Shown here: in pieces, positions 1,242 to 26,935 of the stretch
Layout of the letters: each line of letters begins with the position of its first letter
How positions within the stretch are numbered: the stretch's first letter is position 1
DNA from: Spirochaetales bacterium
Lineage (GTDB): Bacteria > Spirochaetota > Spirochaetia > JABEVK01
DNA: 64,000 bases
Assembly (NCBI GenBank): GCA_037142615.1
Contig: JBAXAI010000001.1
Span: forward strand, 96,001 to 160,000
Direction of reading: 5' to 3'
Notes under the pieces: model-generated
What the model was told of the DNA's origin: nothing
The model's database searches: none
The model's input: only the letters and a program-made list of their open reading frames with translations
Made by a program: the position numbers and the translations under genes

Positions 1242-1699
1242 CTTGGGCGAGGTCGGCCGATCAGGCCGGTCAGGAAGTTCCGCAGAAGCTGGTCACCACA
1301 GACTTTGAAGTTGGTGGTGCCCGGCTTACGGAACAGGGCCGACAACTCGTTCTTTGAGACCGGCATCCCGGCCTTGGCCAAGACGGCCAGGCAGTCTTCC
1401 TCCTGCAATGAGAGCGCGATGCGGAGCTTTTTGAGCACCAAGTTGTTATTGATGCGGGTCACCGGAGCGGGCGCCGAGCCTTCGCGCAGACCACGGTACT
1501 CCAGAATCAGTCCGTCCAGAAACGCGTTGAGCGCCAGCCCCGGGCAGGCCACGAAGCCGGGGTCTTCGTCCTTGAGGAACCACGGTTCCAGCTCGGCCTG
1601 GGTAACCGTTTGTCCGCCTGCTGCCATCAGCGGAAGCACGCGGACATCGGGAATATTCAAAGCGAACCGGATACGCCTCAGGATATCGTTGTTGGTCAA
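1238..1699 (-). CDS. DUF1456 (YehS-like) protein
   Basis: C-terminal part of ORF 1238..2449: [14 protein letters not shown]...[13 protein letters not shown]...ELSALFRK...[10 protein letters not shown]; TTG start overlaps the rarD stop (TTGA). Confidence 0.85.
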
Positions 1700-2573
1700 G
1701 GTTTTACCGCCTTCCGTTTGCGCCACTCGCCGACGCTGAAAAGTACCAGAGCGCACCAGATGAGCGCGAACGCCACTGCCTTGTTGGCGTCGAAATGTTC
1801 CTGAAACACAAAGACTCCGATCACGAGGTTGAGCGTTGGGCTCACGTATTGCAGGAAGCCGATCTGGGCCAAAGTGATCTTGCGTGCCGCGCTGCCGAAC
1901 AGCCAGAGGGGAAGCACGGTGACGGGACCGGCGATGACGAGCAGCGCGATTTGCCAGGCTTCCGGCTGGGCGTTCCCCCAGAAGCCGGCCGCAGGAAGCA
2001 GGAAGATGAGCACCAGCGGTGACGAAAACAGGGTTTCCAGCTGAAGACTGACGAGGGAAGGTACGGGCGCCTGCTTCTTGAGCAGACCGTAGAAGCCGAA
2101 GCTGAAAGCCAGTCCCAGGGCGATCCACGGCACATGGCCAATGCCCCAACCCATTACCAGCACGCCGGCGGCGGCGAGGGCAAAGGCCGCCGTCTGCCAG
2201 CCCGAAAGCTTCTCGCGCAGAAAAACGATGCCCAGGACAACGCTGACAAGCGGGTTGATAAAATACCCCAAGGCCGACTCGACCAGAAAACCATGGCCGA
2301 CGGCCCAGATGTAGAGCCACCAGTTGACGCTGATCAGGGCTGCGGCTCCAACCATGGCGACCAGCTTGCGTGGACTCTTGAACACTGAAAGGGACTCTTT
2401 TTCCTGCCTGAGCGCCAGAACCAAGCCAGCCGTCAAAACCAGCGCCCACAAGATCCGGTGCGCCAGGATGACCTCAGCTGAAAAGGCCGACAGCGCCTTC
2501 CAATACAGCGGCAAGAGTCCCCACAGGACGTAGGCAAAGAACCCTTGCAGCAGACCGAGACGTTTGAGAGGCA

Positions 2574-22461: not shown

Positions 22462-23633
22462 GGTCCAAGAATCTTCTGGATCCATCGAGGGTTTTGCTGG
22501 TCATTATTGCGCTTCTGAGCCTCGGGGCGGTGGGTTTTCTGGCCTTTCAGGTCAAATCGAACCGAGTCAAGGATGCCCTTGACGCCGGACAGACACTCGT
22601 CGTGCTTGTTTTGGTAACACACGACAAAGCACCGCTGTTCAACGAGATCTTGTTGTACAATCCGGCCACTCGCAAAACAGCGCTGGTGGATATTCCTCCG
22701 CAGACCGGTCTTTTGATTCCTGAACTGGGGCGTGTGGACGCAGTTTCTGCCCTGTACCGCCCTGAGGACCTGAAGTCCTATGTGGGTAAACTTGAGGAGC
22801 TCTCGGGGTTAACCATACCTTTTCAACTGCAAATCGATTCGACCGCACTCACTAGCCAGATCGACTTGCTGTCGGGAATGGAGCTCTTTGTACCCAAAGC
22901 CGTGGAGCTGACCAAGACCGACCCCATGGTTCTTCTTCCCAGCGGTAACAATCTGTTCGACGGAGCAAAGGCCACCGACTTTCTTCTCTACTCCGATGAG
23001 GGCGAGGAGTTGTCAGACCGGATCGCGAGGTACCAGAAGTTTGTTCAGTCGCTTTTGCGGCGCTGGGGCGAAAGTGAGGATTTCCTCGTGGCCGATGACG
23101 TATTTCCGCTGTTTTTCCGAACCATGAAGTCCAACATGGAAGAGGCCAGCCTCAAGAGCCTGATTTCGCTGGCCGCCGCCGCCGACTGGGAGCAGGTCGT
23201 GCTCCAGCGAGTGCTGGGGACCCTCCGGGTTGTGGATCAGAAGCCCTTGCTGTTCCCTCACTACAACGGTGCCCTTCTCAAGGAAACTGTGCACCAGGTG
23301 CAAGAAAGTCTGGGAACGGCCAATTCCGATCAGTTGGTCAACAGCACGCTTACGGTGGAAGTCCTCAATGGCACCAAGTTGATGGGTTTGGCAACCCGCA
23401 CCGCCAACCTCCTTCGCAACCAACGTTACGAGGTCATTTCGGCAAAGAACGCCGAAAACACCAACCAAGACAAGACGACCATCATCGACCGGACCGGCAA
23501 TCCGGAGCAGGTGCAGAAACTCGCTGATCTCTTGCACTGCAAGAAGATTGTCGTCCAGAATGATGCCCCGGACGGGGCTGCCAAGATCACGATTGTGTTA
23601 GGGAAGGATTTTGATGGCCGATACGTCCAATAA
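22458..23633 (+). CDS. LCP-family protein with LytR C-terminal domain
   Basis: N-terminal TM, LVDIPPQT, FDGAKA..R, C-terminal VEVLNGT...ITIVLGKDF; conserved position before rsfS. Confidence 0.82.
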   Translation: MRSKNLLDPSRVLLVIIALLSLGAVGFLAFQVKSNRVKDALDAGQTLVVLVLVTHDKAPLFNEILLYNPATRKTALVDIPPQTGLLIPELGRVDAVSALYRPEDLKSYVGKLEELSGLTIPFQLQIDSTALTSQIDLLSGMELFVPKAVELTKTDPMVLLPSGNNLFDGAKATDFLLYSDEGEELSDRIARYQKFVQSLLRRWGESEDFLVADDVFPLFFRTMKSNMEEASLKSLISLAAAADWEQVVLQRVLGTLRVVDQKPLLFPHYNGALLKETVHQVQESLGTANSDQLVNSTLTVEVLNGTKLMGLATRTANLLRNQRYEVISAKNAENTNQDKTTIIDRTGNPEQVQKLADLLHCKKIVVQNDAPDGAAKITIVLGKDFDGRYVQ

Positions 23634-23973
23634 TACTACTCTGAGCCTGTTGGGCCAGTTTCTTCACGACAGCAAAGCACGCGACGTGCTCGTTCTCGAC
23701 GTGGCGTCGACCTGCTCCTGGGCGTCTACGTTCGTGATAGCCACGTACAACAGTCAGGGGCACCTGAAGGGTCTGGTCCAAGAACTAGACGACTGGAGTG
23801 CCGAAAATCTACCTGATGCACCCCATCGGCCCAAAAAAAATCAGGTCAACGACTGGATGCTCATCGACTGGGACGACATCGTCATTCACCTGTTTTCGGA
23901 AAGCGCCCGCTCGTACTACGAACTGGAAAAGCTTTGGTTCAACGCACCCGTGTTGTACCGGTCAACTCAGTAG
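23614..23973 (+). CDS. rsfS: ribosome silencing factor
   Basis: DSKARDVLVLDV, FVIAT, WMLIDWDDIVIHLF...RSYYELEKLW. Confidence 0.92.
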   Translation: MADTSNNTTLSLLGQFLHDSKARDVLVLDVASTCSWASTFVIATYNSQGHLKGLVQELDDWSAENLPDAPHRPKKNQVNDWMLIDWDDIVIHLFSESARSYYELEKLWFNAPVLYRSTQ

Positions 23974-24194
23974 TCGAAGCCGGTGTACTCGAGGTCATCC
24001 TCGTCGTCCAGACTGTCCTCTTCGAAGTCGTCTTCATCATCAAAGTCGTCGAAGCCGTCTTCGTCGTCCAGATCGTCATAATCGTCGTCGGTGGAGTCCT
24101 CGTCGTCGTCATCGTCGAAGTCTTCTTCGAAGTCTTCTTCAAAATCCGAGTCGTAGTCATCAAAGTCTTCGTCACTGAGTCGATAGAAAGCCAT
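23967..24194 (-). CDS. 75-aa extremely acidic small protein
   Basis: ATG 24194 preceded by AAAGGGA; 46 of 75 residues are D/E; consensus promoter upstream. Confidence 0.75.
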   Translation of the reverse strand: MAFYRLSDEDFDDYDSDFEEDFEEDFDDDDDEDSTDDDYDDLDDEDGFDDFDDEDDFEEDSLDDEDDLEYTGFDY

Positions 24195-24249
24195 GGACGT
24201 CCCTTTGTTCGGTAAGTAATCACTTGGGCCTTCGCCCTGTTCTCCACGG

Positions 24250-24278
24250 AATTTAACCGGAGCCCGGGTCCCTGTCAA
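24250..24278 (-). promoter_or_regulatory. sigma70-type promoter for the acidic small protein
   Basis: TTGACA-17-TAAATT on the minus strand. Confidence 0.7.
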
Positions 24279-24300
24279 TACGAAAAAGGAGAAATACCCT

Positions 24301-24328
24301 TTGACAAAACTGCGGGAAAAAGTAAAAT
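24301..24328 (+). promoter_or_regulatory. sigma70-type promoter for the tRNA-Gln/rplY operon
   Basis: TTGACA-16-TAAAAT. Confidence 0.75.
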
Positions 24329-24360
24329 GCTCTTCTGTTATTTTGGGTGAGATTCTACTG

Positions 24361-24433
24361 TGGGACGTCGCCAAGTTGGTAAGGCACCAGATTTTGGTTC
24401 TGGCATCCGAAGGTTCGAGTCCTTCCGTCCCAG
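24361..24433 (+). tRNA. tRNA-Gln (anticodon TTG), CCA not encoded
   Basis: Acceptor stem TGGGACG/CGTCCCA, D-arm GCCAAGTTGGTAAGGC, anticodon arm CCAGA-TTTTGGT-TCTGG, T-arm GAAGG-TTCGAGT-CCTTC. Confidence 0.96.
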
Positions 24434-24457
24434 TAACAAGTCGTCAAGGAGAGAAAT

Positions 24458-25111
24458 ATGGAACAAGTGACCCTGGCCTTTCAGGAAAGAGCCGATCTGA
24501 AGAAGTCGGCTTCTCGCCGCCTGCGCCTTGCCGGACGTATTCCCGCCGTCGTGTACGGTCAGGGAACCAAGGCCTCGATTTCGGTTGATGCCCATGAGTT
24601 CGGCATTCGCTTTGCCTCGTTCGGTGAAAACACTGTCATCAAGCTTCAGTCGGGGAAGACTAGCTACGAAGTGTTGGTCAAGGACTATCAGGACAACGTT
24701 TTGACGAACGAAGTTCAACACATCGACTTCTACCATATCAGCGCCACCAAGACCCTGCATACGAATGTGCCTGTACATGTGACGGGTTCGGCTATTGGCG
24801 TGCGCAACGGTGGTCTTTTGGAGACGGTCGTGCATGAACTGGAAGTCGAATGTCTGGCCAAGGACATTCCGCACTCCATCGTGGTGGATGTGGCAGCACT
24901 TGAAATCGGCAATTCGATCAAGGTGGGTGACATCGTTGCCCCGAGCGGCGTGAAGATCCTTTCAAGCCCCGATGCTGTTGTCGTGCATGTGATCTCGACG
25001 CACGGTCTGGCCGATGTGCCAGAAGCCGCTGAAGCCGCTCCTGCCGCTGAGGCAGTTGCCGCGGCTCCTGCCAAGGATGCCGCCGCTGCCAAGGCTCCCG
25101 CGAAGGCTTGA
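24458..25111 (+). CDS. rplY: 50S ribosomal protein L25/Ctc
   Basis: RRLRLAGRIPAVVYG, VKDYQ...HIDFY, long form with Ala-rich tail; AGGAG RBS. Confidence 0.95.
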   Translation: MEQVTLAFQERADLKKSASRRLRLAGRIPAVVYGQGTKASISVDAHEFGIRFASFGENTVIKLQSGKTSYEVLVKDYQDNVLTNEVQHIDFYHISATKTLHTNVPVHVTGSAIGVRNGGLLETVVHELEVECLAKDIPHSIVVDVAALEIGNSIKVGDIVAPSGVKILSSPDAVVVHVISTHGLADVPEAAEAAPAAEAVAAAPAKDAAAAKAPAKA

Positions 25112-25719
25112 CCCGCTATATCGTGGGGCTGGGGAATCCCGGCCCCCGTTTTTCGAACACCCGCCACAACGCCGGTTTCTGGTTTGTGGAACAGTTGGCC
25201 GAATACTTGGGGCTTTCCTTTCGAAGGCCTTGGTTTCGGCCTTTTTTATCGGCTCGACTGGGCATTGGCGGCCACGAGTTAGTTCTCGTCAAGCCACTGG
25301 TATATATGAACCGGTCTGCGAAGGCGCTGGAAGTCTTGTTTCACAAGAAGCAACTTTTGGCCGCCGATCTCTTGGTCGTCGTGGACCAGATGGACCTGCC
25401 CCCGGGGCGCGCCAAGCTGAAATTGCGAGGAAGTTCCGCTGGGCACAACGGCCTGAAGTCTCTCGATGCCCTGTTGGCCCCCCACTCGTACGCGAGGTTG
25501 GCGCTGGGAATCGGAAGGAACAGTGCTGATGTCGTTGCCCATGTGCTGGGAAAACCTTCCCCCGACGACAGAGCCAAGATTGACGCGCTGATCCGTGACC
25601 TCGTACCTCTGGTCGCAGAAGGCTGGCAGGATTGGGAGGGACTGATCTATGGAGTCAACCACACCACAGTTGCTGCGGCACCTGAAGCAGAAGTGGAAGC
25701 AGTTTCACCTCCTTCCTGA
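25108..25719 (+). CDS. pth: peptidyl-tRNA hydrolase
   Basis: IVGLGNPG, TRHNAGF, KPLVYMNRS, GHNGLKS, RLALGIGR. Confidence 0.93.
   Translation: MTRYIVGLGNPGPRFSNTRHNAGFWFVEQLAEYLGLSFRRPWFRPFLSARLGIGGHELVLVKPLVYMNRSAKALEVLFHKKQLLAADLLVVVDQMDLPPGRAKLKLRGSSAGHNGLKSLDALLAPHSYARLALGIGRNSADVVAHVLGKPSPDDRAKIDALIRDLVPLVAEGWQDWEGLIYGVNHTTVAAAPEAEVEAVSPPS

Positions 25720-26921: not shown

Positions 26922-26935
<14 letters not shown>
25649..26935 (+). CDS. tilS: tRNA(Ile)-lysidine synthetase
   Basis: FSGGRDS PP-loop, HVDH, AHHAQDQAET, RPLL, EDSTN..YLRNALR. Confidence 0.9.

Follow-up and report, generated by a model that had tools for sequence, protein, structure and literature searches.

An undescribed, class-restricted family of free-standing polyacidic microproteins encoded beside rsfS in spirochaetes

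Prothymosin alpha and other eukaryotic poly-Asp/Glu (poly-D/E) chaperones are free-standing, disordered chains of ~100 residues, about half of them acidic, that bind very basic nucleic-acid-binding proteins. DNA mimics of the Ocr/ArdA type are folded proteins with a fixed charge geometry. In Firmicutes, the excerpts that we use of one study describe the C-terminal region (CTR) of the delta subunit of RNA polymerase (RNAP) as 83 disordered residues with a net charge of -47 that compete with nucleic acids in the RNAP main channel, and report that CTR peptides alone act when in excess (PMC7749165). Here we describe a 75-residue polyacidic microprotein from a Spirochaetales bacterium, encoded in a stretch of 64,000 nucleotides (positions 96,001 to 160,000 of the forward strand of contig JBAXAI010000001.1, assembly GCA_037142615.1), hereafter the window, from whose first letter coordinates are counted. 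Its gene is convergent with rsfS, which encodes ribosomal silencing factor, and it founds an undescribed, class-restricted family: a free-standing bacterial poly-D/E microprotein. By analogy with the delta tail, we tentatively suggest that it may act as a competitor or chaperone for basic nucleic-acid-binding proteins.

Acidic chains are also known from the side of translation. In Escherichia coli, according to the portions of two reports on which we draw, acidic nascent chains destabilise the translating ribosome, most strongly near the N-terminus, aborted peptidyl-tRNA is cleared by peptidyl-tRNA hydrolase (Pth), and the proteome is said to contain no runs such as 20 D (10.1101/2021.02.02.429294; PMC11162784). 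The available part of the first of these adds that bulky residues just before an acidic run counteract the destabilisation (10.1101/2021.02.02.429294).

A conserved acidic frame convergent with rsfS

The coding sequence (CDS) translates to MAFYRLSDEDFDDYDSDFEEDFEEDFDDDDDEDSTDDDYDDLDDEDGFDDFDDEDDFEEDSLDDEDDLEYTGFDY, in which 46 of 75 residues are Asp or Glu (D/E), 14 are Phe, Tyr or Trp and one, an Arg, is basic, for a net charge of -45; from residue 8 onwards D/E make up 61%. The initial annotation, made from the letters of the window alone, had given the same counts of acidic and basic residues, and they are exact. It had also proposed looking for a syntenic acidic open reading frame (ORF) in relatives. 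The search for rsfS covered 31 genomes, namely that of the window, 4 more from the genus, 7 from the family and 19 from different families of the same class, and every one of them had the gene. A locus was called positive when an ORF with at least 45% D/E over 40 residues was convergent with rsfS. Such an ORF was found at 26 of the 30 rsfS loci fetched (L001-L030, own genome included) and in 2/5 and 2/2 further genomes of the class, or 30/37 altogether. At L024 a diverged, less acidic ORF (31% D/E) occupies the equivalent place by rsfS. Outside this class, 38 genomes of the phylum, one from each of 38 families, had no acidic ORF by rsfS; among the genomes sampled, the family is restricted to one class of Spirochaetota.

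Across loci the acidic ORF varies from 71 to 108 residues with every length difference in frame, each copy starts with ATG, and most have a recognisable Shine-Dalgarno (SD)-like stretch of purines ahead of it. A comparison of the window with its closest relative (L002) counts 33.5 synonymous differences over 31.3 sites, which is saturated, and 14.5 nonsynonymous differences over 184.7 sites, so that the proportion of nonsynonymous differences (pN) is ~0.08. The ratio of nonsynonymous to synonymous change (dN/dS) is 0.05 for a closer pair, L006 and L007. These alignments indicate that the acidic frame is under strong purifying selection. The expression signals predicted by the initial annotation, a TTGACA-17-TAAATT promoter and an AAAGGGA ribosome-binding site, are both present and are conserved in the window's family: TATTGACAG and TTA.ATT (the -35 hexamer and 5/6 of the -10 positions) are invariant at unchanged spacing in 10/10 of its loci, as is the ATG, and the SD block, AAAGG..ACGTYC-ATG, is kept in 9/10 (alignment A3). 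Two TTGACA-type promoter-like sites lie within a 1.5-kb region, where 0.7 +/- 0.9 are expected from shuffled sequences. The acidic gene is monocistronic, with an apparently strong promoter from which transcription would start near 24243.

The tract is GAN-rich and all six frames on both strands are open across it, so openness alone proves no gene, and codon usage of the ORF is uninformative because too few codon types occur. One might on these grounds hold that there is no gene here, just an open frame thrown up by low-complexity sequence. It is the comparative evidence that settles the frame: frame-keeping conservation across 20+ families, saturated synonymous sites and the conserved promoter, SD block and ATG, together with the RNA-library contigs described below, leave that explanation scarcely credible. 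The acidic ORF is almost certainly a real protein-coding gene.

Metatranscriptome contigs from three runs match the ORF with no mismatches, at 23889-24226 and 23880-24227 in one study and 24017-24167 in another, and DNA of the locus occurs in freshwater and lake metagenomes. The two contigs of the first study end at 24226 and 24227, inside the predicted transcription start, with their other ends (23889 and 23880) at the hairpin that begins at 23892. The contigs support the existence of an RNA without proving where it begins and ends. The initial annotation had made its prediction depend on transcription or translation, and for transcription these three runs from two studies speak in its favour, with DNA carry-over a possibility. 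RNA-run contigs were absent over 23400-23880 (the rsfS body) and 24267-24419, an absence that carries no evidential weight, and contig depths of 5.3-5.6 on the acidic ORF and 3.5-4.4 on the gene for ribosomal protein L25 cannot be used to rank genes. Separately, record 2 of run X1, a low-depth DNA contig of 279 nt, has two short matches to the acidic repeat at 24096-24129 and is otherwise unlike the window; its probable source is a related acidic gene in a different organism of that sample.

Overlap with rsfS and the surrounding genes

Features of the locus are collected in Table 1. In the window the last 7 nt are common to rsfS and the acidic CDS. Coding overlap of this 3'-to-3' kind occurs in 20/28 loci and spans 4-40 nt; in 8 loci, each from a different family, it is exactly 22 nt. 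At 11 loci (L011-L014, L016-L019, L021, L023 and L026) the DDFDD of the acidic protein, read antisense, gives the RsfS tail SSKSS, and in two loci this tail is extended to SSKSSKSSPSS. Because the acidic C-terminal motif, detailed in the next section, is kept in loci that have no overlap (L006, L007, L009, L028 and L038), it is the motif that is selected, at the protein level, with the RsfS tail overprinted on it. The dual-coded SSKSS/DDFDD end shows neatly how overprinting can lock two genes together.

Table 1. Positions of the acidic gene, its predicted signals and neighbouring features in the window
Feature	Coordinates	Strand	Details
Polyacidic microprotein CDS	23967..24194	-	ATG 24194-24192; stop TGA 23969-23967; product 75 aa
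SD-like AAAGGGA	24200..24206	-	5 nt before ATG 24194; seen in sequence
Sigma-70-type promoter-like site	24250..24278	-	TTGACA (24278-24273), 17-nt spacer, TAAATT (24255-24250); 10/12 matches
Candidate intrinsic terminator of acidic gene	23833..23892	-	Hairpin 23892-23843, then U8 23840-23833; embedded antisense within rsfS CDS
rsfS (ribosomal silencing factor)	23611..23973	+	PF02410, E 5.4e-24; convergent with acidic gene
Divergent promoter-like site TTGACA-16-TAAAAT	24301..24328	+	11/12 matches
tRNA-Gln (anticodon TTG)	24361..24433	+	ARAGORN; Rfam RF00005, 62.7 bits; only tRNA of the window
Ribosomal protein L25/Ctc	24458-25111	+	Pfam; context, outside acidic gene
Peptidyl-tRNA hydrolase (pth)	25108-25719	+	Pfam; context, outside acidic gene; 0.9 kb from acidic gene

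The candidate terminator has a fold z of -2.4, and in 6/10 loci of the window's family a hairpin and U tract lie inside rsfS, 111-127 nt past the acidic stop. Its U8 corresponds to Lys-Lys codons (AAAAAAAA) of rsfS at 23832-23846 (+), and the RsfS consensus from 26 genomes contains a KK pair. For a hairpin in the 5' untranslated region (UTR) of the acidic gene, no consensus structure was found among 10 sequences, and the single-sequence fold has z = -0.8. Overlapping ends and a terminator inside the rsfS CDS hinder separation of the pair, which accounts for the synteny; the linkage to rsfS is best explained by this physical overlap of genes and terminators, not by a proven functional link.

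A functional account of the same linkage would make the microprotein a dedicated partner of RsfS, or of its 50S target uL14, that tunes ribosome silencing and hence never leaves rsfS. Its place beside rsfS in the 30 positive genomes fits this, and the mitochondrial RsfS homologue MALSU1 works with an acidic acyl carrier protein. One genome of another class (G124, locus L075) encodes, in an rsfS ORF at 1345-1833 (-), an RsfS that carries a 50-residue acidic C-terminal tail with 20 D/E; it is without a separate acidic gene, and the open frame is similarly long in another genome of that family. This may be a fusion-type hint, though a weak one, linking RsfS to acidic tails. However, such a tail was seen in only 1/38 of the other-class genomes and RsfS is itself acidic, convergent genes are not co-transcribed, and the coding overlap and the terminator within rsfS explain the linkage without a functional tie. 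We therefore consider a dedicated RsfS partner unlikely.

The convergent arrangement could also be regulatory. Translation of the acidic ORF would then report ribosome stability or Mg2+ by way of intrinsic ribosome destabilisation, and its transcript, antisense to the 3' end of rsfS, would act as a growth/hibernation toggle. The predicted 3' UTR is antisense to ~130 nt of rsfS, pth is close by, and acidic runs from residue 8 are the riskiest context for destabilisation, with Pth clearing aborted peptidyl-tRNA, in the passages cited of the E. coli work (10.1101/2021.02.02.429294; PMC11162784). The protein, however, is under strong purifying selection over its whole length, and the C-terminal motif is no exception in non-overlapping loci. 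No downstream gene stands in cis, whereas known sensors such as mgtL are, in the part of that literature used here, short leaders (PMC11162784), and 18/28 loci scanned have no such terminator by the rule used. A regulatory device of this kind thus seems improbable; the antisense coupling, if true, would add a new point of control over ribosome hibernation.

The initial annotation had placed the gene between two translation operons and back to back with tRNA-Gln. The operons are as described: upstream, rsfS closes a row that opens with obg and runs through a nadD-like and an LCP/LytR gene, and downstream stand L25, pth, tilS and ftsH. The pairing with tRNA-Gln is true of the window but fails as a general linkage, since outside the window's family this tRNA neighbours the acidic gene in just a few others, and the conserved partner is rsfS. 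The divergent promoter-like site begins 23 bases beyond that of the acidic gene and would serve tRNA-Gln and probably also L25-pth. An Rfam search over 23400-24900 gave nothing besides tRNA-Gln. With the start codons of the L25, pth, tilS and ftsH ORFs taken as listed, L25 and pth overlap by 4 nt (25108-25111), pth and tilS by 71 nt (25649-25719), and tilS and ftsH by 14 nt (26922-26935). The C-terminal tail of L25/Ctc is of low complexity, rich in Ala, Pro and Lys (AAEAAPAAEAVAAAPAKDAAAAKAPAKA), and resembles histone-H1-like tails.

On the upstream side of the acidic gene, 8 of the 30 positive loci, from 8 different families, have a CheX-family gene (PF13690) 29-223 nt away on the same strand (L011, L013, L014, L017, L018, L019, L021 and L028). 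Beyond this CheX paralogue stand divergent nadC-like or ispE-like genes, named by eye from their translations. That the microprotein is an accessory of a CheX-type chemotaxis phosphatase is suggested by these eight loci and is nonetheless very unlikely: CheX is not at that position in the other 22, the window's genome is without a close copy of the paralogue (best match 28-34% identity, against 46-49% between families), and none of its four CheX matches is near an acidic ORF.

Motifs, composition and the reach of homology searches

The 26 aligned members share a simple layout. Their N-terminus is short and bulky or hydrophobic, reading M-x-F-Y-R-F-S in the window's family, and is followed in 22/26 by an N-proximal motif, F-D-D-Y-[DE]-x-[DE]. 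Near the other end stands a C-terminal motif of the type L-[DE]-Y-x-x-F in 19/26, which in most other families is Y-D-D-G-L-D-Y-D-D-F-D; YDDGLDYDDF itself occurs in 8/26 members and a Y->F variant of it in 2 more, which together represent ten families. Both motifs were defined after the alignment had been seen. The linker between them is acidic and variable, with an F, Y or L interrupting the D/E runs roughly every 4 residues. Depending on the member, the longest unbroken D/E run has 4-12 residues, usually 4-8, and proline is nearly absent. Gaps between hydrophobic residues peak at 4 (119/454), then 3 (75/454), which bears out the spacing of 3-6 positions for F, Y and L noted in the initial annotation. 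The window protein has the features by which we delimit the family, namely 60-110 residues, at least 45% D/E over 40 residues, a position convergent with rsfS at no more than 140 nt or overlapping it, and both motifs, although these criteria were derived from the same data to which they were applied. It is position, composition and short common motifs that hold the family together.

With the 26-row alignment, AlphaFold2 gave a mean predicted local distance difference test score (pLDDT) of 60.1, a predicted template modelling score (pTM) of 0.11 and no secondary structure, and the microprotein is predicted to be intrinsically disordered; a fold may be induced upon binding. Net charge across the 26 members runs from -36 to -63. 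Such a charge on a predictedly disordered chain, behind an apparently strong promoter and with the gene lost in small genomes, would suit a protein that, with no specific partner, buffers or soaks up Mg2+, Ca2+ or polyamines in bulk or generally shields charge under stress. The fixed G, L and Y of the motifs (YDDGLDYDDF) are not needed for ion binding, however, and no EF-hand-like register is apparent by eye, so that we give a partnerless buffer little credence. An EF-hand or DxDxDG reading of the motifs was likewise dropped by eye, the glycine being out of register.

Within its own genome the microprotein is an outlier. Among 33,827 ORFs of at least 40 aa from the whole 4.27-Mb genome, it has the most acidic 40-residue window, with 30/40 D/E, the runners-up having 27, 24, 20 and 20, and no paralogue of the acidic ORF was found in that genome. 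One of the two ORFs tied for fourth and fifth rank, at 20/40 D/E, lies beyond the window at C1:25725-26096 (+) of G000; it encodes 123 aa and has a C-terminal run of ~12 Glu/Asp (HEDPEEEEEEEEEED).

Database searches returned little. No Pfam, NCBIfam or PHROGs family matched the microprotein (composition correction lowers the sensitivity of these comparisons), and none of the PDB sequences did so at E up to 10. Phmmer-type searches of 5.8 billion clusters gave 440 candidates with the single protein as query, none at E <= 0.01, and 8000 with alignment A1, none at E <= 1. A profile search of 301 genomes of the phylum gave 0 matches and also missed the window's own copy, which makes it uninformative; HMMER-based searches are blind to the microprotein because of the composition correction. 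A profile search of 1.84 billion representatives yielded 2 matches at E <= 0.001, both ending in YDDGLDYDDFD[DE]. A contig scan with sub-alignment A2 gave 88 stretches fitting the peptide pattern, of which only the query's own locus passed tblastn, and a DNA pattern for the long C-terminal motif hit 0/301 genomes, a draw that held no motif-bearing genome as positive control. None of 10 family members was present by exact look-up in a collection of 15 billion proteins. The expectation of the initial annotation that annotation would miss this protein is thus borne out. The ESM Atlas does hold the microprotein sequence letter for letter; its best feature match there, at 0.88, is to an unnamed cluster commonest in Spirochaetota, below the lead level of 0.9, and no named cluster was matched. 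Next, at 0.87 and also below the lead level, come unnamed clusters of 69-71 aa commonest in Gemmatimonadota, and other phyla may have polyacidic microproteins of similar size. A search of open PMC full texts and bioRxiv turned up no paper describing a spirochaete protein of this kind.

Proposed function and comparison with known systems

How might so acidic a protein be used? The initial annotation had suggested a mimic of RNA or ssDNA, a chaperone of basic ribosomal proteins or a disordered cation binder. The reading that we put forward, as a possibility short of even odds, is that of a free-standing polyanion that acts on basic nucleic-acid-binding proteins as a competitor or a chaperone, in the manner of the RNAP delta tail. 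Being abundant, it would either rival RNA or DNA electrostatically at the basic surfaces of RNA polymerase, ribosomal proteins or nucleoid proteins, or serve such proteins as a chaperone, and would dock to a partner through its two conserved acidic-aromatic motifs. Thanks to the aromatic punctuation and bulky N-terminus, ribosomes could probably also complete a risky poly-acidic chain: the M-x-F-Y-R-F-S start and the regular F/Y/L punctuation fit the "size principle" and may serve to make synthesis of the protein possible. The aromatics need not mean base-stacking mimicry, as bulky residues are reported to counteract ribosome destabilisation.

Several points weigh against this proposal. If translation alone explains the aromatic pattern, nothing specific favours nucleic-acid mimicry. 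The only conserved neighbour, RsfS, is itself acidic (isoelectric point 4.8, net charge -7) and hence an unlikely electrostatic client. Six genomes of the class lack the acidic gene at rsfS and a seventh has only a weakly acidic version, 5 of these 7 genomes being 1.1-1.8 Mb, so that the gene is dispensable there. A pLDDT near 60 is weak evidence for disorder, and the assembled RNA contigs, which could include carried-over DNA, give no strand, ends or level. HMMER, moreover, cannot join the window's family to the others, and a profile built without that family scores the window protein at 13 bits.

A more elaborate version, which we hold to be a long shot, would combine several of these elements. 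The microprotein would be a free-standing polyanionic recycling factor, equivalent in function to the delta tail but unanchored, that strips nucleic acids from RNA polymerase or solubilises free basic ribosomal proteins during growth, while strong transcription of its gene, antisense into rsfS, holds ribosome silencing down and completion of the chain depends on ribosome stability and Mg2+. If this were true, one 400-nt unit would couple growth state, ribosome integrity and hibernation.

Whatever its function, the gene adds to the spirochaete core a class-wide, apparently well-expressed family that is invisible to curated libraries and bias-corrected searches, and it illustrates that synteny and composition can retrieve real genes from apparent low-complexity noise. 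It also challenges the picture, based on E. coli and given in the part of the source used here, that bacterial proteomes exclude long poly-acidic stretches because these destabilise translating ribosomes (PMC11162784). The regular bulky residues look like a natural solution, and the microprotein offers a substrate for work on the size principle and on the roles of bL31, ABC-F factors and Pth.

Among described systems, leaders of the mgtL type are alike in having an N-proximal acidic nascent chain, and here pth and ribosome-stability genes are nearby. We rejected an Mg2+ sensor leader of that type, the product being 75 aa long and conserved as a whole, with no co-directional gene downstream and the antisense rsfS next. 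The C-terminal tip of single-stranded-DNA-binding protein (SSB) is similar in being an acidic stretch that ends in an aromatic or hydrophobic residue, and the microprotein of one genus ends ...LEYDDF. As a candidate, mimicry of that tip (D-D-[DN]-I-P-F with a free terminal Phe) was rejected: the window protein ends ...LEYTGFDY, whereas the SSBs of its own genome end EDDIPF or EDNIPF, and the microprotein has no I-P-F and most members run past the F. DNA mimics such as Ocr, ArdA-like proteins and Gp44 share with it, as far as the excerpts used describe them, an acidic surface that occupies DNA-binding sites. Unlike the Ocr/ArdA-type mimics, the microprotein is predicted to be unfolded, in line with the low pTM, and its gene is a conserved part of the chromosome across a whole class. 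Prothymosin alpha-type chaperones can be likened to it as free-standing D/E-rich chains of similar size, disordered as it is predicted to be, but are eukaryotic, without sequence relation and poor in aromatics.

The initial annotation had drawn its analogy with the RNAP delta tail, and this holds for size and charge, although the protein is no delta subunit. Delta is tethered by a folded N-terminal HARE-HTH domain, of which the microprotein has none, and the phyla differ. HARE-HTH (PF05066) was found neither in the microprotein nor anywhere in its 96.7%-complete genome, while the control matched in B. subtilis and L. lactis. The likeness, for the delta CTR as described in the sections cited above, lies in two D/E-rich chains of 83 residues with a charge of -47 and 75 residues with a charge of -45, the first disordered and the second predicted to be so, and it is by analogy with that tail that a role at RNAP may be proposed for this free-standing spirochaete protein.

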